Shown: positions 1-20,263, counted from the stretch's first letter. The stretch: 30,307 nt of DNA from a virus (IMGVR_UViG_3300035547_000103:1-30307), one strand, 5' to 3'. The notes: generated by a model from the sequence alone, not told the origin. A program made the numbers and translations.

Positions 1-59
1 TACCGACACGGCGGTTCTTTTGGCCATCTCTTGAAAATATTGGTTTTGCCTGTTTCTTA

Positions 60-72
60 TAAGTGCTTGATT
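60..72 (-). promoter_or_regulatory. IHF-binding site, left of att core
   Basis: Minus strand reads AATCAAGCACTTA, a perfect match to the IHF consensus WATCAANNNNTTR, next to the tRNA fragment. Confidence 0.6.
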
Positions 73-76
73 TTAC

Positions 77-127
77 TGGAGCCGGCGAGCAGACTCGAAC
101 TGCTGACTTGCTGATTACGAATCAGCT
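77..127 (-). tRNA. 3' half of tRNA-Thr(CGT); att core of the prophage, not a complete tRNA
   Basis: Minus strand shows anticodon arm GCTGA-TTCGTAA-TCAGC (anticodon CGT), variable loop, T arm AGCAG-TTCGAGT-CTGCT, acceptor 3' strand CGCCGGC, then T-CCA. There is no D arm or 5' acceptor strand beyond 127. The integrase is adjacent. Confidence 0.9.
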
Positions 128-141
128 TTCCATATTAATAA

Positions 142-184
142 AATCAGGTAGTTAGGGCCATGGGGAGCGCAAACGGAGCGAATT
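142..184 (+). promoter_or_regulatory. att arm: IHF-like site (142-154) and putative integrase arm-type direct repeat
   Basis: AATCAGGTAGTTA fits WATCARNNNNTTR. GGAGCG occurs twice (ggagcgcaaac-ggagcgaatt) between the core and the integrase stop. Confidence 0.5.
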
Positions 185-200
185 TCTTTGATTTTGTTTT

Positions 201-1175
201 TTAATATTTCAGCTTTTCCATTTCAGTTTTCAACCGATCCTGGACCACTTTGGCATATATCTGGGTGGTTCTCAGCTCCGTGTGCCCCAGGATCTTTTGC
301 ACCACCTCCAGGGGGATCCCGGCGGTGAGCATCTGGGTGGCGGCCGTGTGCCGCAGATCATGGAACCTGGATTTCACGCCGGCGGCCCGGGTAATCTCCC
401 GGTAATAGTTGGAAACGGTGGATGTGTGCTTGTATGAAAATATTTTCCCGATGTCCTGGGTCTTCACCACGTCGGCGGCACCGCCCACCAGCGGGATGGT
501 CCGCTCTTTTCCGCCCTTGCCATATATGGTGATGCTTCCGGCCTGGACATGCTCATATCTGGCGCGGATAATTTCACTGCGCCGGGTGCCGGTGAACAAT
601 GCAAACCGGATGATCCGGACCATCTCCGGTTTGTATGTGTCCGCCTGAGACTGGATCGCTTTGATTTCTGAATCGGTCATCACCCGGGGCAACGCCTGTC
701 CGGTCTTGACCATCCTGATCCTGGGCACGGCATCGATGAGCCCGGCGTCTTTGGCAAACCTCAGTGCCCCTTTGATGTGCCGCAGATAGGTGTTGATGGA
801 AGCCGGTCGTAGATCAGCCGTCCGGCACAGGGACTTGATTTTCTGGATGTCCTTGTCCGTGACCCGGTTGATCGGTACATCCCCGGCCGCGTCAATCAGC
901 TTTTTCAGTCCCAGGGCATCGGCCCGAAGCGTATCCGGAGACAGGTCCGCCCTGTCCGGGTGTTCAGTGTACCATTGCGTGTATTGTGACAGCAGCGGGC
1001 TGTTGTCTTTCTCCAGCTGCAAGATGTTGCCCCGGAGCACTTCCTTTTTGATCTCCGCAAATAGCCCTTTGGCAATCCTGGCGTCCCGGGTCTTCAGGCT
1101 TCGGCGCTTGCCGCCCGGGAATGCCACATACCACGTCTGTCTGTGCTGGTACAGCCTCATGATGCCCGGTATCAT
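201..1175 (-). CDS. int: Tyrosine recombinase / phage integrase
   Basis: Catalytic motifs TGTRRSEI (R), GKGGKER (K), FHDLRHT (HxxR), LGH and TTQIY (Y), plus an N-terminal arm-binding-like segment (WYVAFPGGKRRSLKT). Start at ATG 1175 or 1160 rather than 1307. Confidence 0.95.
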   Translation of the reverse strand: MIPGIMRLYQHRQTWYVAFPGGKRRSLKTRDARIAKGLFAEIKKEVLRGNILQLEKDNSPLLSQYTQWYTEHPDRADLSPDTLRADALGLKKLIDAAGDVPINRVTDKDIQKIKSLCRTADLRPASINTYLRHIKGALRFAKDAGLIDAVPRIRMVKTGQALPRVMTDSEIKAIQSQADTYKPEMVRIIRFALFTGTRRSEIIRARYEHVQAGSITIYGKGGKERTIPLVGGAADVVKTQDIGKIFSYKHTSTVSNYYREITRAAGVKSRFHDLRHTAATQMLTAGIPLEVVQKILGHTELRTTQIYAKVVQDRLKTEMEKLKY

Positions 1176-1176
1176 A

Positions 1177-1449
1177 TTACAGACTCCGCAAAATTGACAA
1201 GGCTTTTTCCCGGGTCCCGTAAAAATGGCTGAGCCGGTATTCGTCGATTGATTCTTTGTCAAAGATCCAGTCCCCGCGGTTGGAGTCCGGATCCGGATAC
1301 CCGACAATGTCCCGGCGCTCTGCCAGCTCGATCAGCTTTGCCCGGCTGTAACTGGAATACTTCACCGCTGCCGTCAGCTTCATCCACCTGGGGGAGGCGA
1401 TGCGTTCAGCAATCTTTGCGGCGAGTATGTCCAGTTCCGGGCCGGTCAT
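1177..1449 (-). CDS. xis: Excisionase-like winged-HTH protein
   Basis: About 90 aa immediately upstream of int. Pattern WMKLTAAVKYSSYSRAKLIELA...GDWIFDKESID resembles Xis/MerR-like HTH proteins. Confidence 0.7.
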   Translation of the reverse strand: MTGPELDILAAKIAERIASPRWMKLTAAVKYSSYSRAKLIELAERRDIVGYPDPDSNRGDWIFDKESIDEYRLSHFYGTREKALSILRSL

Positions 1450-1450
1450 A

Positions 1451-1540
1451 TCAGATGAATACCACTGCTCCGGCAAAATATCCGACTAATGCGGTGCACA
1501 ATAAAAAAACAACAAATAAGACATAATTGATTATCATCAT
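1451..1540 (-). CDS. 29-aa hydrophobic single-TM peptide (not in ORF track)
   Basis: Translates as MMIINYVLFVVFLLCTALVGYFAGAVVFI*. A GGAG SD-like sequence lies upstream (1548-1551), and the TGA stop is 1 nt before the xis ATG. Confidence 0.55.
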   Translation of the reverse strand: MMIINYVLFVVFLLCTALVGYFAGAVVFI

Positions 1541-1565
1541 TTTTCCACTCCATATTTTTTCCGGG

Positions 1566-2183
1566 TCATATCCCGGGCTTCATAAATACATACCAGTGTG
1601 TCATTGCCTTGCGGCCGCTTCTGTGGCCGAAGAGCGGCTGGAATGTGGCCACAGATAAAACATCTGCGGCTGGTACTTGCGTCTCATTCCATTTGAAGAC
1701 CAATACACCTTCCGGCTTCAGCACACGGAAACATTCATCGAATCCTCGCCGCAGATCATTTTTCCACTCCGGTCCCAACTTTCCATACTTAGCTGTCATC
1801 CAACTTCTTGGTCCGGCTCTGACAAGATGAGGCGGGTCAAATACGACAAGCCGAAATGAACAATCAGGGTATGGCATATCTCGAAAATCAACCAACTCAT
1901 CCGGGTCTATATTTACTGTGCGGGTGCCATCAGTTTTTCCGTGAGACCGATCAGATACCTTTAATGTTTCGCGCCGGTGATCGACATATAAAACGTCTGA
2001 ATTTTCACGATCAAACCACATCATGCGGCTACCACAACATGCGTCCAGAATTGGAGGAAGCCCAAAAAAAGGCCGGACCATCTTCAAAGAATCGTCTCTC
2101 ATGCTGTTTTTATTCCGTGGTGGAGCAGGTGGAGGTGGTGGCTTCACTGCACCTGCCGGGGGGTATGGATTTTTTATTCTCAT
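1566..2183 (-). CDS. Phage SAM-dependent DNA (amino, probably adenine) methyltransferase
   Basis: Motif I-like ILDACCGSRMMWFD and catalytic motif IV VVFDPPH, plus RVLKPEGVLVFKW. Pro-rich N-terminal extension, so the start is uncertain. Confidence 0.8.
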   Translation of the reverse strand: MRIKNPYPPAGAVKPPPPPAPPRNKNSMRDDSLKMVRPFFGLPPILDACCGSRMMWFDRENSDVLYVDHRRETLKVSDRSHGKTDGTRTVNIDPDELVDFRDMPYPDCSFRLVVFDPPHLVRAGPRSWMTAKYGKLGPEWKNDLRRGFDECFRVLKPEGVLVFKWNETQVPAADVLSVATFQPLFGHRSGRKAMTHWYVFMKPGI

Positions 2184-2236
2184 CTCGTTTCACTCCATTG
2201 GCCGGATGTTGTGTATGGTGACCTGGTCAGGCATAT

Positions 2237-2440
2237 TTAATTTTTAATTTCCTGCAAATCCTGATAAGCGGCGATCATCGCAACCAAATCACCAGACATA
2301 ACAGCCTTGTCTGCTTTTCTCAGGCTTTGTTCAATCATTGCAGCGCCGAACATTCCAGCAGGACCGATTTCTTTGTAATAACCTAACACTTTCCTTACTC
2401 TTGCCATTTCTTCAGGTAGTTTTTCTGCTAAAGTTCCCAT
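2237..2440 (-). CDS. Small phage hypothetical protein
   Basis: MGTLAEKLPEEMARVR..., with a GGAG SD upstream, inside the leftward operon. Confidence 0.65.
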   Translation of the reverse strand: MGTLAEKLPEEMARVRKVLGYYKEIGPAGMFGAAMIEQSLRKADKAVMSGDLVAMIAAYQDLQEIKN

Positions 2441-2457
2441 TATTTTATCTCCCTTAA

Positions 2458-3816
2458 TCACCTTATTAACTCCCTGCACAGCGCCCGGGCGGTCCGCCGT
2501 GGCACCGCGTTTCCAATCTGTTTCACTACCTGGCCCTTATTGCCGGCAAATTTATATCCGACAGGAAACCCCTGGGCCGCTGCCAGCTCATGGGGCTGCA
2601 ACATCCGCATACGGATATCCAAGGCTGGATGTTTTTCAAACACTTCGATCAGGCCGAATCGGTCCCGGGTGGTCACGGTGCCCAGCGGTCGGTCAATGCT
2701 TTGGGCTTTGCCTGTGCCGAAATATTTAATCAGGAACGGTTGAACCAGCTGTTCAGCCCCGGTGGTTGTCAATGTCGGCACAGGCATGTCAATGGACCTT
2801 ACCCTCATCTGTCCCGGGGCACCTTGTTGCTGTGGCAGCAAAAACGGTTCTATCAATCCATATCGGTTGCTTGTGTCAACCACGGGCAAGGGCTTGTCTG
2901 TCCCGTGTACCCGCTTTTCACCTCCTGCCCCGCCGTGGAATCTGGCCAAAAACGGCTGACACACACCCAGGTGCAAACCGCCCGCAGTGACGGCCGGAGC
3001 CGGGCGATCCACATCGGCCACGCGGCTGGTGCCAAAAAACTTCACCAGAAATTCCCTTCCGCCAAACTTATTCAACCCATATTCAATCCTGGCCAGGGTC
3101 TTTTCAGCCAGCGGCCGGCGGCGGTTGAATATGCTTTCCCCGGACAAAGACCAGTCTATAATTTCCCGGGCCGGGACCCATGGCATGGTTTTGCCGAACA
3201 AGTCCCGGCCACCCTGCTGGGTGTGAGTCGGTTCCGGCCACTGGATTTTTTTGTTCCCCCGCCGGGCGATCAGGAAAAACCGCTTCCGGGTGGTCGGGTC
3301 ACCGTAGTCAGCCGCATTCAGCACCCGGTAATCCACCCGGTATCCCAGGGACGTCAAAGCTGTGCAGAACGCCTGAAAAGTTGCACCACGTTTCGATTTC
3401 AAGGGCAATCCATTCACACCCAGCGGACCCCAGGTCTGGAACTCGGGCACATTTTCAATCAGGATGTTGTCAATATACAGGGCCTCCGCCCACCGGACGA
3501 TATGCCAGGCCGACGACCTGGACTGATCACACCGGGGAACACCGCCCCTGGCAATGCTGTGGTGGGTGCATTCGGGTGATGCCACAAGCAGGTTGATCCT
3601 GCCGGACGGATACAAGGTCCGGGGGTTGACAGCATCCAGGGTTTCACACAGATGTCTGGCCCCCGGGTAGTTTGCCGAGTGGGTTGCAACGGCGATATCC
3701 CAGTGGTTGATGGCGGTCAGGTCCACCCTAACCCCGATGGATTCAGCCGCCTGGAACAGCCCGGTGCTGGTGCCGCCGGCACCGCAGAAGAGGTCTGCTG
3801 CAAGGATGGTTTTCAT
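2458..3816 (-). CDS. DNA (cytosine-5)-methyltransferase
   Basis: Motifs DLFCGAGG (I), SPEC (IV, catalytic Cys), ENV (VI), TTRKRFF (VIII), RML...ELAAAQGF (IX) and QIGNAV (X). Confidence 0.93.
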   Translation of the reverse strand: MKTILAADLFCGAGGTSTGLFQAAESIGVRVDLTAINHWDIAVATHSANYPGARHLCETLDAVNPRTLYPSGRINLLVASPECTHHSIARGGVPRCDQSRSSAWHIVRWAEALYIDNILIENVPEFQTWGPLGVNGLPLKSKRGATFQAFCTALTSLGYRVDYRVLNAADYGDPTTRKRFFLIARRGNKKIQWPEPTHTQQGGRDLFGKTMPWVPAREIIDWSLSGESIFNRRRPLAEKTLARIEYGLNKFGGREFLVKFFGTSRVADVDRPAPAVTAGGLHLGVCQPFLARFHGGAGGEKRVHGTDKPLPVVDTSNRYGLIEPFLLPQQQGAPGQMRVRSIDMPVPTLTTTGAEQLVQPFLIKYFGTGKAQSIDRPLGTVTTRDRFGLIEVFEKHPALDIRMRMLQPHELAAAQGFPVGYKFAGNKGQVVKQIGNAVPRRTARALCRELIR

Positions 3817-4073
3817 ACCGACACCTTTTTATAAACCAGGCCTCTTTCTGGCTTGCAAAGAAGCGGGGGTCTGCATCCATAGCAGTAGTGGTCAAAAACA
3901 CGGATCCTGTCCGGATCTTCCATGCTGGCTGAAGCATTTCCGTCGCAATGAACACACCAAGACTCATGTTGTTTCCTGGTTAGACCAGATTTTGACAAAT
4001 CGACCAGGTGGTAACAAAGCCCTTCCATTTCAATAATCTGTTTTTGGGTCTCTCTGATTTCTGGTTCACTCAT
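3813..4073 (-). CDS. Cys-rich hypothetical protein
   Basis: ATGA-coupled at both ends; CVHC and CYGC motifs; GGAGG SD. Confidence 0.6.
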   Translation of the reverse strand: MSEPEIRETQKQIIEMEGLCYHLVDLSKSGLTRKQHESWCVHCDGNASASMEDPDRIRVFDHYCYGCRPPLLCKPERGLVYKKVSV

Positions 4074-4708
4074 GCCGTCACCTCCCACTTAAAACCAACC
4101 CCCACGCACATCACCCTGAAATGAACGAAGCTATAGCCATCGCGCTGCCTGTACCGGGTTGGGAATCCGGTATAGGGGTTGCGCTCCGGCACCTTCATTT
4201 CTATGATGCCGTCTTTGCCGATGCGTTCATGCCACATGGGGTTCCGATTCGGCGGGATGCTGCCGGGCTTGAAACTGCGTTTGTTCCGGCCGGTCAGTCC
4301 CTGGCCCTTGGTGCCGGCATTCCACGGCTTTCCGCCTTTTTGAAATTGACCCTTGAGCCCGGAAATGATCCGGCGATTTGCCATCAGGGCCCGGATCTGT
4401 TGCAGGGTGAAGTCGGTGCCGAACTTCTCGTTGACCATCCGGGTGATCTCCGGTTTCCATCGGCCCCGCGCGATTTTTCTGACATAGGCCACCTGGGCAC
4501 AGGTAAAAAGCCGCTCCCGATTTATCAGGCGTTTGCTATGTGGCCGGCCGCACTTGATTTTATTTTTTGCCAGGACGGTCCGGATGGCATTCACGGTACA
4601 GTCCATGCCGAATTTTTTGTTGAACGATGCTGTGACATCTTCCGCCTTCATTGTAGAATAAGCGTTTGCCAGAAACACCAGGTGGCGCTTGTTATATTTC
4701 TTTTTCAT
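4070..4708 (-). CDS. Phage HNH-family protein N-terminal region; catalytic HNH domain apparently missing
   Basis: Two repeated helical units followed by FQKGGKPWNAG...FKPGSIPPN...ERIGKDGIIEMKV, typical of phage HNH proteins. The ORF ends about 26 aa after TRY with no H-N-H motif. Confidence 0.65.
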   Translation of the reverse strand: MKKKYNKRHLVFLANAYSTMKAEDVTASFNKKFGMDCTVNAIRTVLAKNKIKCGRPHSKRLINRERLFTCAQVAYVRKIARGRWKPEITRMVNEKFGTDFTLQQIRALMANRRIISGLKGQFQKGGKPWNAGTKGQGLTGRNKRSFKPGSIPPNRNPMWHERIGKDGIIEMKVPERNPYTGFPTRYRQRDGYSFVHFRVMCVGVGFKWEVTA

Positions 4709-4940
4709 CGGATGCCCTCATGCCGATCATCTCCGGCGCTGACTTAATCAGCCCGTCATTGATTGATTTGTGCGCATCCAGTGCCAGCTTTGCGTTGTTG
4801 ATGATCTGGGATGCGATGCCGGTGATGGCTTTGGATCGTTGCAGTTCTTCCTGGAGCTGGTCTGCCTTGAGGTCGTCATCCGACAGCTTTTCCAGCTGGG
4901 CGAACAGGTGGTTGTTGAGATCGATGAGCTTGTTCTTCAT
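4692..4940 (-). CDS. Conserved small phage protein (commonly upstream of HNH genes)
   Basis: MKNKLIDLNNHLFAQLEKLSDDDL...RSKAITGIASQII; GGAGG SD and ATGA coupling at 4937-4940. Confidence 0.8.
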   Translation of the reverse strand: MKNKLIDLNNHLFAQLEKLSDDDLKADQLQEELQRSKAITGIASQIINNAKLALDAHKSINDGLIKSAPEMIGMRASDEKEI

Positions 4941-5587
4941 GCTGTCACCTCCCTGCCGATCGGCGGGCCTGCCTTCACCCATCCAGTGTTTTTCAGGAAA
5001 CCAGCCACTGCGTTCCGCCGGTCCTTTTCCTGTTTTTTTATCAGTGATTTTTTTTGTGTGGCGTTCTGGCAGACTTTGCAATAACAACTCAGACCGTCCA
5101 CATTGGTCCGATTCCGATAAAAATACTTGGGCGTGGCAGGCAACACCGGATCTTTGCATCTGGGGTTGCCACATTTTTTTGTCATGGGCGCGGGATCTGG
5201 ATTAGGTGGCGGGGCAGGTTTCTTTTCTATACCGGATTTTTTGGTATGGTCGGACAGTTTTTTTCTGTAGGCTTCTGTTTTTGAAGCAATGCCCGCATTG
5301 GCTTCAAACGCCAGGGCCGCCTTAATGGTTTTGAATCCAACCCTGTATCCCATTGTGATGGCCTGGGCCAGCGGGTCAACGCCGGGGAACAGCGGGATGA
5401 AGCGTTCACAGATCAAGCAGACGTTTTGGTCTTTATCGATTTTGTTTTGATTGGCGCAGACAAAATACCGGTGGCAGTAGTCACCGCGCCGGATCTGCCC
5501 GGGCTTGAGATTTATCGGCAGGTTTGAACGCAAAAAACCCGAAGCAGGGTTTCGGGCCTGTCCGGGTTTTTCAAATTGTCTTGCCAT
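4937..5587 (-). CDS. Zn-binding hypothetical protein, first gene of leftward operon
   Basis: AAGGAGG SD at 5593-5599; Cys clusters including KKCGNPRC...FYRNRTNVDGLSCYCKVC. Confidence 0.7.
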   Translation of the reverse strand: MARQFEKPGQARNPASGFLRSNLPINLKPGQIRRGDYCHRYFVCANQNKIDKDQNVCLICERFIPLFPGVDPLAQAITMGYRVGFKTIKAALAFEANAGIASKTEAYRKKLSDHTKKSGIEKKPAPPPNPDPAPMTKKCGNPRCKDPVLPATPKYFYRNRTNVDGLSCYCKVCQNATQKKSLIKKQEKDRRNAVAGFLKNTGWVKAGPPIGREVTA

Positions 5588-5604
5588 CGTGACCTCCTTG
5601 CAGA

Positions 5605-5626
5605 GGTCCGGGGGCGCTGTGTGATG
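5605..5626 (+). repeat. 22-bp exact repeat, copy 1 (GGTCCGGGGGCGCTGTGTGATG)
   Basis: Identical to 9718-9739. Confidence 0.95.
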
Positions 5627-5634
5627 TATCGATT

Positions 5635-5664
5635 ACGTTACAGGATGATTGCAGCGGGTGTCAA
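5635..5664 (-). promoter_or_regulatory. Leftward early promoter (pL-like)
   Basis: Minus strand TTGACA (5664-5659), 18-bp spacer, TAACGT (5640-5635); predicted start near 5628. Confidence 0.55.
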
Positions 5665-5692
5665 GAATTTTTTTTTCATGCGTATTTTTTTC

Positions 5693-5721
5693 TTGATTAT
5701 TTGTAGTCCATGGACTACATT
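5693..5721 (+). promoter_or_regulatory. TA operon promoter with 18-bp palindromic operator (5702-5719)
   Basis: TTGATT-17-TACATT. The perfect palindrome TGTAGTCCA-TGGACTACA overlaps the -10 box, and the toxin ATG follows at 5728. Confidence 0.75.
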
Positions 5722-5727
5722 GAAACC

Positions 5728-6021
5728 ATGCAATATGAAATCGAAAAAACCGACGTGTTTGACAAATGGCTCAAGAAACTTAGGGACAGACAGGCGGTCA
5801 TGGCTATTGCAAAACGGCTGGACCGGGTCATTCTCGGCAACTTCGGGGACGTGGCCCCGGTGGGGGACGGCATCAGCGAGATGCGCATTTTTGTCGGCAA
5901 GGGATATCGGCTGTATTATGTGATCCGCGACAACCGCATGGTCTTTTTGCTGTGCGGCGGGGACAAATCCACCCAGAAAAAAGACATCACCCGGGCCAAA
6001 ACCATGGCCAAAACAATATAG
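5728..6021 (+). CDS. Type II TA toxin, RelE/ParE superfamily (addiction module killer protein, HigB-like)
   Basis: FDKWLKKLRD...GNFGDVAPVGDGISEMRIFVGKGYRLYY...LLCGGDKSTQKKDI is the signature of this family. Confidence 0.92.
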   Translation: MQYEIEKTDVFDKWLKKLRDRQAVMAIAKRLDRVILGNFGDVAPVGDGISEMRIFVGKGYRLYYVIRDNRMVFLLCGGDKSTQKKDITRAKTMAKTI

Positions 6022-6029
6022 GAGGGCCT

Positions 6030-6308
6030 ATGAAAACAACCACCAGTCCATACAATCCGTTTGACTATCTGGAAACGGAAGAGGAAATCAACGAATATTT
6101 GAACGATGCGTTCGTGGACGATGACCCCCAGGTGTTTCTGGTCGCCCTGGGGCACCTGGCCAGAAAGCAGGGTATGCAGGAGGTGGCCAGAAGAACCGGT
6201 TTGAACCGGGAAAGCCTTTATAAATCGCTCTCAGGCGCCGGGAACCCGCACTTTATCACTGTGAAAAAAGTGATAAAGGCCCTGGGGTGCAAGTTGGAAG
6301 TGGCGTGA
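6030..6308 (+). CDS. Addiction module antidote (HigA-like HTH antitoxin)
   Basis: FDYLETEEEINEYL...ALGHLARKQGMQEVARRTGLNRESLYKSLS...NP; AGGAGG SD; toxin-first gene order. Confidence 0.92.
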   Translation: MKTTTSPYNPFDYLETEEEINEYLNDAFVDDDPQVFLVALGHLARKQGMQEVARRTGLNRESLYKSLSGAGNPHFITVKKVIKALGCKLEVA

Positions 6309-6559
6309 TGCTGCCGGAAAGCATTGAACCGGATTCCGTTCCCCGGGAAGTGGCGGAAAAAGCCATCCTGGAAGATATGCCGCTGATCAAAGCCTGGCGC
6401 CTTTACCTGGGCATGACACAGAAAGCGGTGGCAAAAAAAGCCGGCATCACCCAGGCGGCCCTGTCTCAGATGGAACGGGCGGAAAACACTAACCGGACCG
6501 CCACCCTGGAAAAGCTGGCCATGGCCCTGGGCGTGTCGGTGGCGCAGGTGCAGGATTGA
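6308..6559 (+). CDS. XRE-family HTH protein resembling the C-terminal part of a second, different HigA-type antitoxin
   Basis: TGATG-coupled to the antidote; VPREVAE...PLIKAWRLYLGMTQKAVAKKAGITQAALSQMER...TLEKLAMAL. Confidence 0.8.
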   Translation: MLPESIEPDSVPREVAEKAILEDMPLIKAWRLYLGMTQKAVAKKAGITQAALSQMERAENTNRTATLEKLAMALGVSVAQVQD

Positions 6560-6560
6560 T

Positions 6561-6605
6561 CTATGAAAACAACCACCTGTCCATACAATCCTTTTGACTA
6601 TTTGG
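6561..6605 (+). repeat. 45-bp imperfect copy of the antidote 5' end (6028-6072); gene stub
   Basis: Three mismatches in 45 bp; encodes MKTTTCPYNPFDYL and then diverges. Confidence 0.9.
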
Positions 6606-6607
6606 TT

Positions 6608-6641
6608 GTTGTCTATACATGTATATAAAAGTATAGACAAC
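6608..6641. promoter_or_regulatory. 11-bp inverted repeat, putative operator
   Basis: GTTGTCTATAC-N12-GTATAGACAAC with an AT-rich spacer. Confidence 0.5.
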
Positions 6642-6717
6642 CAGGGTTGCGTCTGATAAAATAATTGTCGTTTATATCTGCAACAGGCGACAACCATTTA
6701 ATGGAAAGGAATCCACC

Positions 6718-6951
6718 ATGGCCAAAAAAGAATCCGTCATTATCGACATTCGCATCAAACCGGGAACAATGGAAAAGATCGACGCGCTCACCCGCAGCCT
6801 TGAGGATTACCACCAGGCGAAACAGTCTGTTGATGCCTCCATCTAGGACCTTGAATCAGCGCTTACCCAAAGTCCGTTTCAGCTTGTCCAGACTGTTTTG
6901 AACAGACCGGAGGTCGTTGCCGCTGATCGTGAAGGAGAACTCACGGCATAG
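6718..6951 (+). pseudogene. Small ORF interrupted by in-frame TAG at 6844-6846
   Basis: AAAGGA SD; MAKKESVIIDIRIKPG...VDASI*DLESALTQ...ELTA*. The frame stays open for 34 more codons after the TAG. Confidence 0.4.
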
Positions 6952-6981
6952 GCATTCGATCTTTTGACAAAAATTTTTTGA

Positions 6982-7383
6982 TTACGATTTATTCAATTCT
7001 TTTAAAATGCGAGGCAAATCATGTCCATTAAAGTCAAGCTCAACTTTGCAACGGTCGCAAGCGTATGGGAAAAATTTTTCCATAGAGCCAAGAGGCATTC
7101 TGCATCCCGGGCAATACACGGTCGGATGATAATCTCCACCAGGCGTTTTTCTTTTGAAAAGTGCCCCCATGTGTTCCGTAAATTCTTCAACAACAGATTT
7201 TTCTTTCACCTGTTTGCGAAGGCCTGCAATCTCAACCTGGCTATCGGCAAGGGTTTTTTGCAGATATCGACATTTTTCCTCCAGTTCGCTCACTTTGTCT
7301 TTAAAGAGCGCCAGCCGCTCTCGAAGAATTGAAGCGCTGCCATGTTCGTTTATTAAATTTTGCAGTTCTTTAACCAGGTTCAA
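6982..7383 (-). CDS. Coiled-coil plus C-terminal Zn-ribbon protein, downstream of cI
   Basis: AAAGGAGG SD; heptad-rich N-terminal half; CPGC...CDRC; visibly AT-rich. Confidence 0.8.
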   Translation of the reverse strand: MNLVKELQNLINEHGSASILRERLALFKDKVSELEEKCRYLQKTLADSQVEIAGLRKQVKEKSVVEEFTEHMGALFKRKTPGGDYHPTVYCPGCRMPLGSMEKFFPYACDRCKVELDFNGHDLPRILKELNKS

Positions 7384-7487
7384 TAATGTGCCTCCTTTGT
7401 TTTTGATAGGGGAAACTACCTATATGCGCCTAAGGGTTTTCCCCAATTGAAACACTGTTAACTTTTCTGATAAAGGGTATGATCCGA

Positions 7488-8072
7488 CTATTGCCCTTGG
7501 TCGCTGCCGCCATCTCTTTTTTTGCGTTCGGCCTCCTGTTTTTTGGCCACGATCTCCTTTCTGGTCTCAATGTATTGAAGGATACCATTAAGCTCTAATG
7601 GGTCCATCGCTTCGAGTTCCACCAGCTCCTGGTTGATCTGGAGTGCCTTGTCTTTCTGCTGGAATTTCTCAACCACTTTCCAATGGAGATGGTCCAGGTC
7701 AATGACATTTTCATTTTCAGGCGGTGATCTCAAGGCGGCGAGAGACGCTTTCATTTCATTTCTGACAATCTCCCCTATTTGATTCCGCATATCGTTTTTA
7801 ATCGGATTGAGCTCATCCTGTCCAATGCGGATCGCCTCTGCATAGGACACCCCCGTGGCCGCTAATGCTTCTTGTCTAAGCTCAAAAGGGAATTTTTGAA
7901 AATACCTTTCACCGCTTTCTTTTGTCCGCCCGGTTAAAATATAGCTCAACTTAGATGCCGACATGTTCAGCTTTTTGGCAAGCTGTTTTCTGTTCATCCC
8001 CCGGTTATCAGCCAGGTACTTTCTCAACCAGGCGCGGAAAATTTCTTCATCATTTTTCATAATTTTTAACAT
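7488..8072 (-). CDS. CI-like immunity repressor (N-terminal HTH)
   Basis: GMNRKQLAKKLNMSASKLSYILTG HTH; divergent from the cro-like gene. Confidence 0.8.
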   Translation of the reverse strand: MLKIMKNDEEIFRAWLRKYLADNRGMNRKQLAKKLNMSASKLSYILTGRTKESGERYFQKFPFELRQEALAATGVSYAEAIRIGQDELNPIKNDMRNQIGEIVRNEMKASLAALRSPPENENVIDLDHLHWKVVEKFQQKDKALQINQELVELEAMDPLELNGILQYIETRKEIVAKKQEAERKKRDGGSDQGQ

Positions 8073-8132
8073 ACTGCACCCCTATTTAAAGGTCAAAGGC
8101 AATCTATGTTAAGTATTTTCAGACGCTTGTAT

Positions 8133-8187
8133 AATTATTTTCATTTTGAAAAAAAGTGTTGACAGATGAAAATAATTCCCGTAAATT
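8133..8187 (+). promoter_or_regulatory. Rightward early promoter (pR-like) with inverted-repeat operator
   Basis: TTGACA (8159-8164), 17-bp spacer, TAAATT (8182-8187). A 12-bp inverted repeat AATTATTTTCAT (8133-8144) / ATGAAAATAATT (8166-8177) flanks the -35 box. Confidence 0.75.
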
Positions 8188-8193
8188 AACGCC

Positions 8194-8397
8194 ATGAAAA
8201 TCAAACAAAAACATATTTGCAAAAGATACGGGCTAAGCCCTGCCATAGTCTCCCTGACGCTTTCAGGCAAGCGAGCAGTGTCGTGGCCATGGGCAATAAA
8301 GCTGGCAGAAGACTTTCCGGGGAAAACAGTCGTCCAGTGGAAAGAGGCAACCCCAGAAGATTTAAAGCGGGCGTTTGCCCAACATGAGGAGGCATAA
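8194..8397 (+). CDS. Cro-like HTH regulator
   Basis: 67 aa, KQKHICKRYGLSPAIVSLTLSGKR HTH; first gene of the rightward operon. Confidence 0.8.
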   Translation: MKIKQKHICKRYGLSPAIVSLTLSGKRAVSWPWAIKLAEDFPGKTVVQWKEATPEDLKRAFAQHEEA

Positions 8398-9129
8398 ATG
8401 TCAAAAGAATTGGTAGAGATTAAAGGCAAGGCCGTGGTCACAGACTCTTTGACTGTGGCTGAGAACTTCGGGAAACGGCACGACGATGTTTTAAAAAAAA
8501 TCAAAAACATCATGTTGGATGACGAAGAAGATCGCCTCAATTTTGCGGAGATGTCATACCCAGATTCATACGGTCGAGAGCAGAAAAAATACATCATGGA
8601 CCGCCGCTCTTTTTCAATTCTCTGCATGAGCTTCACCGGCAAAAAAGCATTGAGGTGGAAAAACCGTTTTTACGATGCCTTCGAGGCGATGGAAAAGGCC
8701 CTTGTCCAGATGTCTGTTCAGAAACAGTCTGATTCTTGGGTCGCCCAAAGACAAGCCGGAAAGCTGATCAGGCGCGAACAGACGGACACCATTCAAAAAT
8801 TTGTTGAGTATGCAACCGGCCAGGGCAGCACCCAGGCCAACCGCTATTACTGCAACATAACCAAAATGGAAAACCAGGCCCTTTTCCTCCTGGAGCAGAG
8901 ATTTCAAAATTTGCTGGAAATATTGGACCTGAATCAGCTTGGGCTTGTCAGAACCGCCGACAGCATTGTGAAAAAGGCTCTCCAGGATGGAATGACAGAC
9001 GGCCTTTTTTACAAAGACATCTACAAGCTGGCCAAACACAGAATCGAAACCCTGGCCGACATTCACGGCAAAACATACATACCTGCCAGTCAAATCAACC
9101 ACCATTACAGACAAGCAATAGGGGCTTAG
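8398..9129 (+). CDS. rha: Rha-family phage regulatory protein
   Basis: TDSLTVAENFGKRHDDVLKKI...YPDSYGREQKKYIMDRRSFSILCMSFTGKKALRWK...AFEAME. Confidence 0.9.
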   Translation: MSKELVEIKGKAVVTDSLTVAENFGKRHDDVLKKIKNIMLDDEEDRLNFAEMSYPDSYGREQKKYIMDRRSFSILCMSFTGKKALRWKNRFYDAFEAMEKALVQMSVQKQSDSWVAQRQAGKLIRREQTDTIQKFVEYATGQGSTQANRYYCNITKMENQALFLLEQRFQNLLEILDLNQLGLVRTADSIVKKALQDGMTDGLFYKDIYKLAKHRIETLADIHGKTYIPASQINHHYRQAIGA

Positions 9130-9246
9130 GGCCAAGGACCAGTCCATGTCTTTTTTATCAGCTAAAAAAAGCATATCGGTTTTCATAATCTGGTTCTCCT
9201 TATTGTCACATTAACCGAACCCAACAAGCAATGCGAGGTCAAAACA

Positions 9247-9711
9247 ATGGCAAAACAGACCACACTCCCCATTAAAACCTGGCAATTCTATCACGCCTGC
9301 AAACACCACCTGGGCGTTGCTACCATCCAGAAGCTGTTCAAGGTCTCACCCCGCCAGATCGACCGGTGGGCCTGTGACCCCGATTTTGCCGAATCGTCTC
9401 AAAGAAACCCCATGGACCGGTATGAAACCTTGCTGAAAAAGCTGATGGAGCTGGGCGCTGTCGATGTAGCCCGGGCAACGGTGGACCGCCAGGCAGCCAT
9501 TGTCGGTTGTTCGCTGCAATGCGAGGGCGATGTTGTGCCGGACAAGGAGACGCTTGAAGCCGAGTGCCTGGATGACCTGCCGGCCCTGGCCGTCCTTCAC
9601 CGGGCGATGCTGAACAAGGAGCCGATCCAGGTGGTCAATGACCTGGCGCGTAAAGCCATAAAAGACATCAAAGAAGACCTGGTTCTGTACCAGGAAAATA
9701 ACAACCAATAA
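9247..9711 (+). CDS. CII-like regulatory protein (putative)
   Basis: HTH-like IQKLFKVSPRQIDRWA...RNPMDR; position after cro/rha; GAGG SD. Confidence 0.55.
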   Translation: MAKQTTLPIKTWQFYHACKHHLGVATIQKLFKVSPRQIDRWACDPDFAESSQRNPMDRYETLLKKLMELGAVDVARATVDRQAAIVGCSLQCEGDVVPDKETLEAECLDDLPALAVLHRAMLNKEPIQVVNDLARKAIKDIKEDLVLYQENNNQ

Positions 9712-9717
9712 TAGGAT

Positions 9718-9753
9718 GGTCCGGGGGCGCTGTGTGATGACAGCACCCGGACC
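9718..9753 (+). repeat. GC-rich hairpin containing copy 2 (9718-9739) of the 22-bp repeat
   Basis: GGTCCGGG-GGC-GCTGT / loop GTGATG / ACAGC-A-CCCGGACC; directly before the SD of the 9766 gene; no U-tract. Confidence 0.85.
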
Positions 9754-9765
9754 GAAAGGAGTTCA

Positions 9766-9963
9766 ATGAAACAGGCAATCACAGCAATTTCAGCATTCAT
9801 CGCAATCATCGGTCTAAACATGGCCGGGGCCGAAGCAGACGTCAACCAGTTGGTTGTCAATTTGTCCGGGCTGGTTTTGACTGTGATCGGTGGGCTGGTG
9901 ATCTGGCTGGTGAATCGCCGCCAGCCCGGGTGGGAAATCAACGAAACAATCAACAGGAGGTAG
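9766..9963 (+). CDS. Small two-TM membrane protein
   Basis: AAAGGAG SD; two hydrophobic segments. Confidence 0.7.
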   Translation: MKQAITAISAFIAIIGLNMAGAEADVNQLVVNLSGLVLTVIGGLVIWLVNRRQPGWEINETINRR

Positions 9964-9965
9964 CA

Positions 9966-10364
9966 ATGTCAGAAATAAAGACTGTAAAAAGAACCGAATA
10001 CATCAAATACGTCTTTTCAGATGAAGAAAAGACCGAAATGGCCGGTGAAATGGCCCAGGCAATCAACGAAAAAGAATCTGCAGAACAGAAGCTCAAAGAA
10101 GTCCAGAAGGGCATCAAAGCCGAAATCGAAGCATGTCAGACGCGAATCAATACACTGTCCCGCCATTACAGTGCCGGTCACACATACCGGAACTGTCCCT
10201 GTGACGTTGAATATGATTTTACAGAAAAACAGGTCCGGACCTACCGCGAGGACACCGGGGAGCTGGTGGCCAGCAGGCCGATAAAAGCCAACGAGCTTCA
10301 AATTGAAATTTTCGACGATAATGCGATCACTGCGCCTGCGGAAGAACCGGAGGAGGTGTATTGA
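9966..10364 (+). CDS. Phage hypothetical protein
   Basis: AGGAGG SD; coiled coil followed by C...YDF...TYREDTGELV. Confidence 0.75.
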   Translation: MSEIKTVKRTEYIKYVFSDEEKTEMAGEMAQAINEKESAEQKLKEVQKGIKAEIEACQTRINTLSRHYSAGHTYRNCPCDVEYDFTEKQVRTYREDTGELVASRPIKANELQIEIFDDNAITAPAEEPEEVY

Positions 10365-10573
10365 TGGCAACATTCAACATCAAATGCGGCATATGCGGCC
10401 AGGACATGGCCGTCAAGCCGGACGTGAGCGAGGACGGAGGTTTGGTGTTTTTGGCTACCTGTCCGGGGTGCCAGCAGATGAACAAGGTCATCGGTGATCT
10501 GGAGGACACCAATTTTGATCTGGCTGTGGAGCTGGGGAAGTATGTGCGAAAGGAGCTGTCCCATGAAAATTAA
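10364..10573 (+). CDS. Small Zn-ribbon protein
   Basis: CGIC...CPGC; coupled to both neighbours. Confidence 0.65.
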   Translation: MATFNIKCGICGQDMAVKPDVSEDGGLVFLATCPGCQQMNKVIGDLEDTNFDLAVELGKYVRKELSHEN

Positions 10574-12503
10574 ACTGCAAAACCTTTATATCCAGAACTT
10601 TAAAGGCATTCCGGAATTCAACATTGTGGCTGCCGGGGAAAACCTAAGCATCACCGGCCAGAACGCCAGCGGAAAGACTACCGTGGCAGATGCTTTTTCC
10701 TGGTGTCTGTTCGGCAAGGATTCAAACGGCCAGGCGCAGTTCAGCATTAAGCCCCTGGATGAAGCCGGGCAGGATATCCACAACCTGGAAACGGTGGTTG
10801 AAGCGATTCTTTCCATTGACGGCAGGGACATGTCCCTGCGGAAAAGGTTCGAGGAAAAGTACACAAAAGCCCGAGGTTCAGCAAAGAAAGAATTTCAAGG
10901 CCATACCACAGACCATTTTATAGATGGCGTGCCGCTGAAAAAGAAAGACTATGATGCCAGGGTGGCGGACCTCTTTTCCCTGGAACAATTCAACCTGGTC
11001 ACCAACCCCGCCGCCTTCAACGCCCTGCACTGGACCAAACGCCGGGAGATCCTGTTGTCTATGTGCGACACAGTGCAGCCCGACGATGTGGCCGGCAGTG
11101 ACAAAGATCTAAAGCCCTTCCTTGACAAACTGAATGGCAGCAGCCTGGATGATTTTAAAGCCCGTCTGAAATCACAGCAAAAAGAAATAAACGATGAGCT
11201 CAAAGAGATCCCGGTCCGCATCCAGGAGCACCAAAACACCTTGCAATCTGCCAAGGCCCCCGACCAGGCCAAAAAGAAATCCCTGGATTATAATTTAAAA
11301 GAGGCCAGGGAAAAGCTGCGGCAGATCGAAAACAACGAGCGCCTTTCCGCTCTCCAGGTGCGCCGCAATGAAATCAATGCCGCCATCCTTGAAAAACAAT
11401 CAGCGGCAGGCCCCGGCATCGAAGAACAGCGAAAACCGATCAGAGAGCAGATCGAAAAGAAGGGCCAGCAGCTGCGGGATGTCAAGAACCGGATACAGTC
11501 CCTGCAGGACGAAATCACCCGCGATGAAAACAGAAACCGTCTTTCCCGGGAAGCTCTGGAAACCATGCGGACCGAATGGCAGCAGATCAAGGCCCGGGAA
11601 TATGACGGCAGCGAATCCTGCCCCACCTGCGGCCAGGATCTGCCTGCTGAAAAAATCGCCGATGCTGTTGCCAAATTCAACCAGGACAAGGCCCGGGACC
11701 TGAAACAGAACGAGGAAAAAGGCCGGGAGATTGCAGCCGGAACAACCGGCCGGCAGAACGCCATTGATGCGGCAAAGGCTAAGATTGGTGATCAACAGAA
11801 GATTGCTGACCGGTTGAAAAAAGAGATTGACCGGCTGGATCAGGAGTATGCCGACGTGCAGCCGGTGGCGGTTGATACCAGGGAGATGGATCAGGAGCTG
11901 GTCAATGTTGATGCTGAGATCGAGGCGATCAAATCCGGATCCGGCATCCAGGGGCGGGACATCAAAGCTAAAATCGAAAAGCTGGAAATCGAGATTGAGT
12001 ATTGGAACCAGGCCGATGCTGATTACCGGTCCGCCCAAAAATCCGGTGACCGCGTGAAGGAGCTGGAAGCGCAGGAAAAGAAACTGGCCGCTGCATACGA
12101 GACCCTGGAAGCTGATTTGTTTCTGGCTGAGCGGTTCACTGTCAGGCAGGCGGAGATGATCGAGGATAAGGCGAATGAGCTGTTTTCCCTGGTCAAATGG
12201 AAGCTGTTTGATAATCAGATCAACGGCGGGGTTAGCGAAACGTGTGTTGCCACATATCGCGGGGTTCCCTATCCGGACCTGAATACCGGGGCCCGGGTGC
12301 AAGTCGGGCTGGATATCATTAATACGCTGTCAAGGCATTATGACCTGGTGGCACCGGTATGGTTGGACAACAGAGAATCGGTTACCTGGCTGCCGGAGAT
12401 CGATGCCCAGGTTATCAGCATGAAGGTGGTTGACCGGAGAGACAAAGATTTTAACAAAATCGATGGATTGTTTATTGAAAATGAGGATGAACAGCATGCC
12501 TAA
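10563..12503 (+). CDS. SbcC/Rad50-like ATPase
   Basis: IQNFKG, Walker A GQNASGKTT, long coiled coils around a Zn hook CPTCGQ, signature-like LNTG, Walker B-like VWLDNRES. Confidence 0.88.
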   Translation: MKIKLQNLYIQNFKGIPEFNIVAAGENLSITGQNASGKTTVADAFSWCLFGKDSNGQAQFSIKPLDEAGQDIHNLETVVEAILSIDGRDMSLRKRFEEKYTKARGSAKKEFQGHTTDHFIDGVPLKKKDYDARVADLFSLEQFNLVTNPAAFNALHWTKRREILLSMCDTVQPDDVAGSDKDLKPFLDKLNGSSLDDFKARLKSQQKEINDELKEIPVRIQEHQNTLQSAKAPDQAKKKSLDYNLKEAREKLRQIENNERLSALQVRRNEINAAILEKQSAAGPGIEEQRKPIREQIEKKGQQLRDVKNRIQSLQDEITRDENRNRLSREALETMRTEWQQIKAREYDGSESCPTCGQDLPAEKIADAVAKFNQDKARDLKQNEEKGREIAAGTTGRQNAIDAAKAKIGDQQKIADRLKKEIDRLDQEYADVQPVAVDTREMDQELVNVDAEIEAIKSGSGIQGRDIKAKIEKLEIEIEYWNQADADYRSAQKSGDRVKELEAQEKKLAAAYETLEADLFLAERFTVRQAEMIEDKANELFSLVKWKLFDNQINGGVSETCVATYRGVPYPDLNTGARVQVGLDIINTLSRHYDLVAPVWLDNRESVTWLPEIDAQVISMKVVDRRDKDFNKIDGLFIENEDEQHA

Positions 12504-12562
12504 AAAAGTAATGTTCCTTGGAAAAAAATTTAACGACGCATCATTCAAGGAGGTATAGCAGC

Positions 12563-13429
12563 ATGACAAACCTACCCGCAATAAGAAAAACCCTCACCAG
12601 CGAAAACATGCAGGCCACCATCCGCCAGCGGATCGGCCAGAAGGCTGGAACATTCACCACATCTTTGCTCGATGTCATCGGCGACACACCGGCCCTTCAG
12701 CAGTGTGATCCTGCTCTGGTGGTCAAGGAGGCCCTCAAGGCAGCTGCGCTGGATCTGCCCATCAATAAGAACCTGGGATTTGCCTATGTGATCCCGTACA
12801 ACGAATCCCGCAAGGACGGCAATAAATGGATAAAGGAAATGCGGCCGTCTTTTCAGATGGGGTACAAAGGTTTTATCCAGCTGGCTATCCGTACCGGTCA
12901 ATTTAAGCACCTGAATGCAGGTGTTGTTTACAAGGGCGAGGAGATGGTTGAGGACCGGATCAAAGGCACAGTCCAGATTTTTGGAGAGCGCACCGGTGAT
13001 AAGGTGGTTGGATACTTCGCCTACATGCAGCTGGTGAATGGCTTTGAAAAGGCAGTTGCCTGGACAGCTGACATGGTTGTCAAGCATGCAGAGAAGTTTT
13101 CAAAATCCTACAGCGGCAAAAACTCACCCTGGAAAACCGACTTTGACGCCATGGCCAAAAAGACCATGATCCTGCAGCTCAAGAATTACATGCCCATGAC
13201 AATCGAAATGAGCCAGGCCATGGCTGCCGATTACTCAGACACCAGGCCGTCACCGGAGCATGAAGCCGACCGGCAGGCCAACCAGGAATATATCGACATT
13301 GAACCGGTTCAGGAAAAAGTCAACACACAGGAGCCAGATCATGTTCCCGACGACGGGGAAATGACCGATGAGGAAAAGGCGGAGATTCTGGAGCATGAGG
13401 CGAAAGAGGCGGCTGAGGCTCCGTATTGA
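12563..13429 (+). CDS. recT: RecT-family ssDNA annealing recombinase
   Basis: KAAALDLPINKNLGFAYVIPY...FQMGYKGFIQLAIRTGQ...SPWKTDFDAMAKKT; AAGGAGG SD. Confidence 0.93.
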   Translation: MTNLPAIRKTLTSENMQATIRQRIGQKAGTFTTSLLDVIGDTPALQQCDPALVVKEALKAAALDLPINKNLGFAYVIPYNESRKDGNKWIKEMRPSFQMGYKGFIQLAIRTGQFKHLNAGVVYKGEEMVEDRIKGTVQIFGERTGDKVVGYFAYMQLVNGFEKAVAWTADMVVKHAEKFSKSYSGKNSPWKTDFDAMAKKTMILQLKNYMPMTIEMSQAMAADYSDTRPSPEHEADRQANQEYIDIEPVQEKVNTQEPDHVPDDGEMTDEEKAEILEHEAKEAAEAPY

Positions 13430-13785
13430 TGCCAGTAGTCTACAGGATACAGGATAAGCACGGCAGGTGGCCATGGAAACCCGGCTTTTCCCATAAATGG
13501 GTTGAAAGCCGGGATGACCATAAAAACCTTTTGCCCTCATATCAGGACTTTTCAACAATCTTTTTTGGACTGCTACGGCCACATATTGGGTGTGGTTGTG
13601 CCACTATTGAGCAGCTGCAAAGATGGTTTACGGAATCGGAATATAAAACACTGATGAATTATGGATATATGGCCGTGAAGCTCAATGTGGATGAAATCAT
13701 AGCGAAGTCTGACACGCAGCTGTTGTTTAGGCGCAACCTGCCTTTGAGAAAGAAGGTTGTTAGAGTGAGGCTGTATGATGCCTGA
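13429..13785 (+). CDS. Phage hypothetical protein
   Basis: TGATG-coupled to recT; VYRIQD...GCGCATIEQLQRWF. Confidence 0.7.
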   Translation: MPVVYRIQDKHGRWPWKPGFSHKWVESRDDHKNLLPSYQDFSTIFFGLLRPHIGCGCATIEQLQRWFTESEYKTLMNYGYMAVKLNVDEIIAKSDTQLLFRRNLPLRKKVVRVRLYDA

Positions 13786-13987
13786 AAATGTGCCAAATAT
13801 AGAACGCCGCGATACGTTCTGGCATTACGCCGGCGTGATTAATTCTTATGACCGCTTGCATGAGCGGTGCCGGATCGCCCGTGCCAAGTATGACATCCAG
13901 TTTGGCAAAGGTCGGTTCCGGCGCATGAGGCGGTATCGTGACCCCAGGACCGGGGAAATCAGAAAGACCGTGGAGGTGTGGATATGA
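13775..13987 (+). CDS. Small basic hypothetical protein
   Basis: Overlaps both neighbours in the operon; GAGG SD. Confidence 0.55.
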   Translation: MMPENVPNIERRDTFWHYAGVINSYDRLHERCRIARAKYDIQFGKGRFRRMRRYRDPRTGEIRKTVEVWI

Positions 13988-14202
13988 GTAAAATAAAAAG
14001 CATTACGATTATAAAAAACCCTGCTGAAAAAGTTTTCAGTGTCGGGGATGTGTGTTCCGGTCTTGAAATAGCCAGTATTGAAAATTATTCCCAGGAATTT
14101 CCGGACGGCTGGAACAATTCATACATAGGCTTCACAAAAGACAGAAAGATGGTGTTTGAAGCTCTAAACGCCTCTGTTCTGATTAATTACGAGCTTGATT
14201 AA
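13984..14202 (+). CDS. Small hypothetical protein
   Basis: GGAGG SD; ATGA and TAATG coupling. Confidence 0.65.
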   Translation: MSKIKSITIIKNPAEKVFSVGDVCSGLEIASIENYSQEFPDGWNNSYIGFTKDRKMVFEALNASVLINYELD

Positions 14203-14924
14203 TGATTGACATCCAGGTTCATGCCTCTGGATCTTCTGGAAATTTATACCGCATTTCAGACGGAACCACCATACTGATGCTGGAATGCGGGTTACGTTTC
14301 CGGGAGATCCGGCAGGCGTTCAAATTTCAACTTTCCGGGGTGGATGGGTGCCTGCTATCCCATTGCCACCAGGACCACTCCAAATCAGCAAAAGACCTAA
14401 TGAAAGCCGGGGTACCGGTCTATATGTCAGCCGGGACAGCCGATCAATTATCACTAACCAGGCACAGGGCAAAAATAGTAAAACCGTTGATTAAATTTGA
14501 TGTTGGTGGTTTTACTGTTTTGCCGTTTCCTACCGAGCATGATTCAGCGGAGCCTTTTGGCTTTTTAGTAAAATCCAAATCCGGTGAAAAGCTGCTGTTT
14601 ATCACCGATTCATATTATTGCAAATATCGTTTTGCTAACGTCAATTATTTTCTTATTGAGTGTAATTACAGCAAAGATATTTTGGCTGTAAATGTCGCCG
14701 CAGGTCTTGTCTCGCCGTCCATAGAATCACGCATCAAAAGAAGTCATTTTGAGCTTGAGCGCGTCAAGGCGTTTTTCCGGGCAAATGATCTGAGCAGGGC
14801 CAGGGGGATATGGTTGATTCATGTGAGTAGGGGGAATGGTGATCCGGAGCGGTTTAAATCGGAAATAGAAGCCATGACCGGGGTCCCGGTTTATGTGGCC
14901 GAGGCGGATGGTGGGGTTGTATGA
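14202..14924 (+). CDS. Metallo-beta-lactamase-fold hydrolase (likely exonuclease partner of RecT)
   Basis: SGSSGN, SHCHQDH (HxHxDH), HD, ITD, IECNY, SH, LIHVS. Confidence 0.9.
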   Translation: MIDIQVHASGSSGNLYRISDGTTILMLECGLRFREIRQAFKFQLSGVDGCLLSHCHQDHSKSAKDLMKAGVPVYMSAGTADQLSLTRHRAKIVKPLIKFDVGGFTVLPFPTEHDSAEPFGFLVKSKSGEKLLFITDSYYCKYRFANVNYFLIECNYSKDILAVNVAAGLVSPSIESRIKRSHFELERVKAFFRANDLSRARGIWLIHVSRGNGDPERFKSEIEAMTGVPVYVAEADGGVV

Positions 14925-16262: not shown

Positions 16263-16276
16263 GGAAGGGGCTGAAA

Positions 16277-20207: not shown

Positions 20208-20263
20208 AAATAATACCATTCTAACGGGAAATAATACCATTCTAACGGGAAATACCGGGAAAT
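20208..20263 (+). repeat. Tandem 21-bp repeat (2 copies) plus partial copies
   Basis: AAATAATACCATTCTAACGGG at 20208-20228 and 20229-20249; CGGGAAATA occurs three times. Confidence 0.92.

Follow-up and report, generated by a model that had tools for sequence, protein, structure and literature searches.

How does a temperate phage come to carry one sequence in two early operons that are transcribed away from each other, and what could the two copies do? The question is raised by a viral stretch of 30,307 nt (IMGVR_UViG_3300035547_000103:1-30307, here called the window, with coordinates counted from its first letter), the record of a temperate phage with integrase, CI-like, Rha, RecT-like, O-like, terminase and portal genes. 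As an earlier note on this DNA had claimed, an exact 22-mer is present at 5605-5626 and again at 9718-9739 on the same strand, 4.1 kb apart, and the divergent transcripts read these two copies in opposite sense. From the comparison of related loci and from RNA folding we conclude that this is a real, conserved and co-varying pair, probably representing a form of trans-acting riboregulation, of unproven sign. Pairing between the two transcripts, with an effect of one sign or the other, is in our estimate very probable. For the more specific proposal that the rightward lytic hairpin would pair with the leftward leader, free its ribosome binding site (RBS) and allow readthrough to xis/int, we estimate a probability of roughly 0.55.

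The 22-mer has only these two matches in the window even at 3 mismatches, its expectation from 100 dinucleotide shuffles is 0.00, and it constitutes the longest exact dispersed repeat of the window, a longer 26-nt match at 20208/20229 being a tandem duplication. Both copies lie in structured contexts, and the two hairpins drawn in the earlier note, one over the Shine-Dalgarno sequence (SD) of the first leftward open reading frame (ORF) and one in the rightward transcript, were recovered on folding. The elements of the pair are as follows.

5659..5664, minus strand: -35 box TTGACA of the predicted leftward promoter, read from the sequence, with the predicted +1 near 5628
5605..5626, minus strand: copy 1, the predicted single-stranded 5' toehold entering the anti-SD arm of the leftward leader
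5585..5615, minus strand: GACCUC/GAGGUC hairpin over the SD AAGGAGG (5599-5593) and part of the AUG at 5587, -18.8 kcal/mol, z -3.5
5532..5572, minus strand: intrinsic terminator within the first leftward ORF, with its U-tract at +50 relative to the AUG
4937..5587, minus strand: first leftward ORF, 216 aa, no PHROG or Pfam match
8159..8187, plus strand: predicted rightward lytic promoter pR, 10/12 consensus
9247..9711, plus strand: CII-like gene, the anchor for finding relatives, with a CP76/186-type lead only
9700-9717, plus strand: A/U-rich unstructured flank before the trigger hairpin
9718..9753, plus strand: trigger hairpin from sequence and folding, with copy 2 (9718-9739) as 5' arm and loop GUGAUG, -25.3 kcal/mol, z -2.9
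9756..9963, plus strand: SD and a small hydrophobic ORF (ATG 9766) immediately after the hairpin, followed by recombination/replication genes

In the folded leftward leader the first 10 nt of copy 1 are unpaired with p 0.9-1.0. For the leftward start near 5628 given in the note, the -35 box is a perfect TTGACA (5664-5659) while the -10 is weak, so that the start remains a prediction. The U-tailed terminator at 5572-5532 had been overlooked; if the first leftward ORF were left untranslated, transcription would stop there and give a leader of about 95 nt. For the name "cII" in the same note, neither Pfam nor PHROG gives support for the gene at 9247..9711, and it stands as a label on an ESM Atlas lead to CP76/CII alone (score 0.92, 201 shared features, family on 56% of the cluster). 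An A/U-rich flank precedes the trigger hairpin in the positive loci described below, in several of them with a -10-like box 5-7 nt before the hairpin (AATAAT at 9707-9712 in the window), and this flank may mark a site of cleavage or give the trigger a promoter of its own.

Is the arrangement peculiar to one phage? Relatives were collected via the CII-like gene, and after exclusion of duplicates (L001, L002, L035, L056, L058 and L059) and of loci with less than 2.5 kb upstream, 34 loci including the window were available. The layout is found in 11 of these, again counting the window, mostly with unrelated repeat sequences. Ten of them (the window, L011, L024, L025, L027, L028, L032, L034, L038 and L048) carry a same-strand repeat with copy 1 ending 32-38 nt from a leftward TTGAC and copy 2 in a predicted rightward hairpin; in the eleventh, L040, copy 1 lies 17.2 kb away, before a small gene, an integrase-like ORF and tRNAs. 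The distance between copies thus ranges over 2.1-17.2 kb. In 10 of the 11, copy 1 is followed by a leftward gene whose start site is structured, and the leader stands directly ahead of a small gene and an integrase in L027, L034, L038 and G053 (the last read from ORFs). TTGACA is invariant in 5/5 aligned leaders, and the positives are spread over many branches of the CII-like tree. The exact 22-mer itself recurs in one viral contig, where both positions are kept and the cII-like regions are only about 70% alike. Family-level genome searches for relatives added nothing and a phylum-level search gave two weak matches, while no CII-like relative was present among 50,697 GenBank phages. Most genome-derived positives come from an order-level search around a Desulfobacteraceae record, and the host range is therefore only inferred.

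A comparison of this kind had been proposed in the earlier note; in the relatives both copies are retained, and they change together. Nine types of core sequence can be told apart, and within each phage the two copies match: the window and L025 share one core, those of L038 and L040 are one base apart, and the remaining seven are all different. The single base that differs between L038 and G053 is changed in both copies, and the cores of the window and L028 differ at several positions in both copies, L028's own copies matching at 20/21. L025 provides a natural swap: the genes on either side of its hairpin, the cII-like one and the one that follows, belong to the L028/L030 type, while the hairpin itself is of the window type and matches the phage's own leader; the trigger hence follows the leader type, not the neighbouring genes. 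The 3' arm of the trigger hairpin changes along with the 5' arm (judged by eye). Of seven internal transitions between copies, six are G.U-compatible for pairing of the left leader with the right hairpin (by eye; p 0.0625), which is no more than suggestive of this strand choice. A wide-window comparison of the duplex energies of the two strand pairs, in which the opposite pair is lower in 6/8, gives no support because it is confounded by flanks. The paired length is 18-44 near-perfect nt and differs between phages; pairing is gapped in L024 and L032, the latter pairing in two blocks and skipping an insert to reach the RBS-stem arm.

Chance, a host repetitive extragenic palindromic (REP) element or a rearrangement scar could produce such a pair, and unrelated repeats of similar length do occur, as in L043 (21 nt) and L069 (REP-like), which scored in our scans; an origin of this kind is nevertheless hardly credible given 0/100 shuffles and an architecture that recurs, built from different sequences, across many branches of the CII-like tree. 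For the core of the window and L025, chance or REP is excluded, since only two copies exist in the whole 5.1-Mb genome G863, the carrier of the L025 phage. A quite improbable explanation is that the repeat acts as DNA, either as a binding site for Cro, CI or CII or as a recombination or module-exchange site flanking the immunity region. Copy 1 does sit just behind the predicted start site, where repressors bind, and the Cro-like proteins of the window and L025, which share the core, are 81% identical; yet CI is only 41% and the CII-like protein only 47% identical between phages with identical cores, the 22-mer has no dyad symmetry, and there is no copy near pR at 3 mismatches. Gapped pairing in L024 and L032 and hairpins whose 3' arm changes along with copy 2 also argue against a DNA element, as does the lack of a deletion joint from 5626 to 9740 in four DNA runs, though contigs drop rare forms.

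Would the RNAs pair, and what would pairing do? In an 8x8 matrix of leaders and triggers, cognate binding is best in 8/8 and the lowest RBS-opening cost is reached with the own trigger in 8/8, with cognate binding at -12 to -31 kcal/mol (mean -22) versus a mean of -5.9 for non-cognate pairs. The ensemble computation lets the RBS-opening cost drop by 4-14 kcal/mol with trigger in 9/9 loci, in the window from 17.7 to 4.3 kcal/mol. Opening of the rightward SD changes by less than 2 kcal/mol on pairing in five of six loci, and in the sixth it becomes less accessible. The 5' toehold is unpaired over at least its first 5 nt in the window and in 5/8 leaders; the leaders of L011 and L024 fold their 5' ends, that of L032 partly. 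In the window, L011, L024 and L028 (4/8 leaders tested), 48-50 nt separate the AUG from a terminator U-tract, and L025 has the same layout. L011 and L024 keep this spacing of +48 to +50 although their first ORFs bear no relation to that of the window, which fits translation-coupled attenuation, an established principle that is inferred here. The claim that the rightward RNA opens the leftward RBS is thus favoured in direction by the energetics; its sign is left unsettled by the best single complexes discussed below.

We propose the following model. The order of elements in the leftward leader, directly seen in the sequence, is the complement of the hairpin loop and 5' arm, then the SD/AUG stem, then a terminator 50 nt into the ORF. 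With the leftward promoter alone, an untranslated leader would be made that stops at this terminator, and the operon would be off in the lysogen; where the leader directly precedes the small gene and integrase (L027, L034, L038, G053), this default-off state would protect the lysogen. Upon loss of CI, transcription from pR would pass cII, and the terminator scan shows no plus-strand terminator between pR and copy 2. The loop GUGAUG could then nucleate on the free 5' end CAUCAC and strand exchange would enter the anti-SD arm, with the computed fall in opening cost given above. A ribosome would load and cover the 5' arm of the terminator, and RNA polymerase would read on to the excisionase and integrase genes, so that excision would be tied to lytic transcription and delayed behind it.

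Several observations weigh against this model. 23 of the 34 loci are negative, some of them being too short (L029, for example, has L028's hairpin with only 3.6 kb upstream in the locus), and 17 further loci, 16 regions from a class-level search and one viral locus, gave no new case; four of these have less than 2.5 kb upstream, L061 and L025 are one phage, and neighbours were annotated for L069 only. The leftward -10 candidate at 5640-5635 (18-nt spacer) matches at only 3/6 positions and is unlisted by the promoter scan. L048 has the repeat and the promoter without an obvious SD/AUG stem, and no in-ORF terminator was found in L027, L032, L034 and L038. The best single complex captures the RBS (anti-SD) arm fully or almost fully in only 3/9 loci and captures none of it in L011, L027 and L032, so that in the switch the exchange would be poised, with ribosome binding tipping it. 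In the window and L025, perhaps also in L027/L028, operator-like half sites (AT-rich and ambiguous) stand upstream of the leftward -35, and they suggest that CI/Cro may also control the leftward promoter. Finally, a further leader in G053 hardly opens with trigger, at 11.2 to 10.7 kcal/mol, although the RNA of the first element could bind it with a computed -30.6 kcal/mol.

This leader belongs to a third exact copy of the G053 core (C1:4432308; L079:6291-6327), where a second leftward promoter-leader precedes a short ORF and an integrase-like ORF. It lies 3.8 Mb from the sole trigger in that genome, in a second, decayed element with insertion sequence (IS) insertions nearby. Regarding the half sites, inverted-repeat operator-like sites flank the -35 of pR (8108-8178) and similar half sites are present at 5665-5700 in the window; in L025 the half sites upstream of the leftward -35 differ in sequence and match that phage's own pR.

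Could the sign be the opposite? The single-stranded 5' end would then be a ribosome standby site that is blocked by the rightward RNA with RNase III cleavage, and lytic growth would shut xis/int off. By analogy this has some appeal: a structured RBS behind a single-stranded stretch that is fully complementary to an RNA is the layout of tisB/IstR-1, as far as the accessible part of the source describes it (PMC6690012), and the RBS stem survives in the best complex in several loci. A standby block needs no stem invasion, yet the opening cost falls in 9/9, and in L032 a second block of pairing on the stem arm is retained. Moreover, an xis-int operon that is on by default would make the lysogen unstable in the absence of a repressor, and L024, L032 and L038 show no operator in common. 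We therefore consider this reversal of sign decidedly unlikely.

Alternatively, the leader RNA could be the regulator, which antiterminates, refolds or, through RNase III, processes the lytic transcript before the recombination/replication genes, possibly reciprocally. L027 speaks for this, and against activation of the leftward operon, since its copy 2 hairpin (4230-4275) follows cro, not the CII-like gene, and ends in U7 like a tR1-type terminator, which points to an effect on the rightward operon where the leader could disrupt the terminator. The trigger hairpin abuts the next SD in most loci, and a leader terminated at about 95 nt would amount to a small RNA in its own right. In the window, however, no U-tract stands directly behind the hairpin, the rightward SD is already open and little changed on pairing, and both the pairing into the anti-SD arm and the conserved spacing between AUG and terminator would be left unexplained. 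A role of the leader as regulator is accordingly unlikely, if less so than the standby block, and opening of the leftward RBS by the trigger remains our preferred reading.

How does this compare with known systems? Lambda nut and HK022 put are matched elements in both early operons that have the same sense, act in cis and control readthrough. The present pair resembles them in having matched elements in both early operons and differs, as the earlier note had pointed out, in that its copies lie on the same DNA strand and so have opposite sense in the divergent transcripts. In the early regions of lambda, HK022, 186 and Mx8, the longest exact same-strand repeats more than 500 nt apart measure 13-14 nt. 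P1 C4 RNA controls translation-coupled premature termination in the early operon of a temperate phage. Such control of termination in an early operon is the likeness to both C4 and P4 CI; those RNAs, however, come from the controlled transcript or cistron, sharing strand and transcription unit with their target, and repress, whereas here a direct repeat is read on opposite strands and activation is predicted. For P4, the control of translation-coupled premature termination in the early operon by CI RNA and seqA-seqC is covered in the accessible part of PMC4825925; the further articles cited were likewise accessible in part, and our statements hold for those parts.

Gifsy-1 IsrK (IsrK-orf45-anrP, Salmonella) is, within that scope, the closest known system, being a short form of the transcript that it activates in trans (PMC4825925). 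As is proposed here, a prophage trans RNA activates an inactive leader and downstream genes via translation, tied to prophage induction (PMC4825925), while IsrK and its target are isoforms of one transcript and the phage pair lies 2-17 kb apart on opposite strands in two divergent early operons. In tisB/IstR-1, a dedicated repressing small RNA pairs about 100 nt from the RBS and blocks a standby site (PMC6690012); the two cases share a single-stranded leader segment that is perfectly paired and followed by a structured RBS, whereas in the phage the duplex would border on the RBS stem or extend into it, with a partner predicted to be part of a polycistronic lytic RNA. Synthetic toehold switches share the predicted 5' toehold, the RBS-sequestering stem, the complementary trigger and, in silico, a cognate-only response (PMC8601185); the phage system is natural, its trigger is a hairpin presenting a loop, and an in-ORF terminator would be coupled to its output. 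The antisense RNAs lambda OOP, P22 sar and lambda aQ are each made at the locus of their target, on the other strand (PMC12197685), likewise exerting antisense control in the early region, and OOP acts close to the 3' end of cII, which is also the position of copy 2; here, in contrast, complementarity arises from a dispersed direct repeat with the second copy 4.1 kb off. In their accessible parts, PMC12197685 and PMC7067206 describe cis-antisense and host-targeting phage RNAs and nothing of this layout. A literature search found no description of the arrangement, most subscription work (older P1, P4 and HK022 papers) lying outside that search. Rfam returned only a partial tRNA and two chance matches for window positions 1-17000 at E<=5, and two tRNAs only for 9 related loci at gathering, with no C4, IsrK or other family. 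We conclude that the pair works like an anti-antisense activator or toehold switch and differs from C4/CI, IsrK, OOP/sar and nut/put in the features that define these.

Proteins link excision to induction in the lambdoid model phages, namely CI at both promoters, N, and Xis/Cox. If the proposed activation is true, excision would here be linked to induction by RNA alone, between two divergent operons, and the phage-specific sequences could form a second specificity layer beside immunity. More broadly and somewhat short of an even chance, a family of temperate phages, mainly from Desulfobacterales-type genomes, may wire its early operons by phage-specific RNA pairs that replace a repressor-controlled pL or a protein of the N type, the trigger unlocking translation and readthrough of xis/int and some leaders antiterminating the lytic RNA. 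As a diffusible molecule, the trigger might also mobilise another element that has the same leader, such as the one in G053. Natural toehold switches are described as scarce (PMC8601185, accessible part), and the nine sequence types, orthogonal in silico, would then be a natural library of orthogonal switches. The mechanism is amenable to a two-plasmid reporter in E. coli, and other prophages can be searched for the signature, in which one copy of a same-strand repeat stops about 36 nt from a leftward TTGAC and the other lies in a rightward hairpin.

A detector run on the 17 further loci scored 3/287 versus 2/286, 0/287 and 3/304 in controls. A promoter-anchored detector scored 11/529 versus 3/523, 1/529 and 3/468 in controls and, at a score >=17, 8 versus 1, 0 and 0, missing L048; as it was designed after the positives had been seen, it describes the pattern and is no independent test. 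Three candidates were rejected, namely L069 as a REP-like false positive among host genes, L043 as a 21-nt repeat without promoter, which we take to be IS-end-like, and L017 as being at chance level. The CII-like homologues of one clade (L064-L070, L042, L043) appear to lie outside evident prophages, the neighbours of L069 including a uvrA-like ORF, and this clade is possibly a domesticated phage regulator. Contigs in DNA runs X3 and X8 share the start of the first leftward ORF (5587) and then continue into different leaders, one of the L028 type; to judge from these contigs, more leader variants exist in the samples.

The remaining features of the window are listed below.

88..144, minus strand: partial tRNA, likely att core (Rfam tRNA 23.6 bits, below gathering; no whole tRNA by ARAGORN)
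201..1307, minus strand: tyrosine integrase (phrog_1, E 7.5e-58)
1177..1476, minus strand: probable excisionase, called by position (weak HTH_17, E 0.045, below cut-off)
1566..5174, minus strand: middle of the leftward operon with small ORFs, an HNH-type gene and two DNA methyltransferases (PHROGs)
7488..8072, minus strand: CI-like repressor (helix-turn-helix, HTH, matches)
8194..9129, plus strand: cro-like ORF, positional and with no PHROG or Pfam family match, and Rha-family gene (8398-9129, PF09669, E 3.4e-24)

The first leftward ORF shows 94% and 52% identity to its counterparts in two relatives. Between the leftward promoter and cI, a RelE/HigB-like toxin, an HI1420-type antitoxin and a third HTH gene occupy 5710-6559, with an 18-bp palindrome at 5702-5719 as the likely operator of this toxin/antitoxin region and a 45-nt duplication at 6028/6561. 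A leftward ORF antisense to rha (8614-9186; no PHROG match) has a plausible SD before its ATG at 9186, and its position suits a pE-type transcript. Further downstream, iteron-like repeats lie inside the O-like gene at 15184-15310, and a 21-nt tandem duplication follows the terminase gene at 20208-20254.

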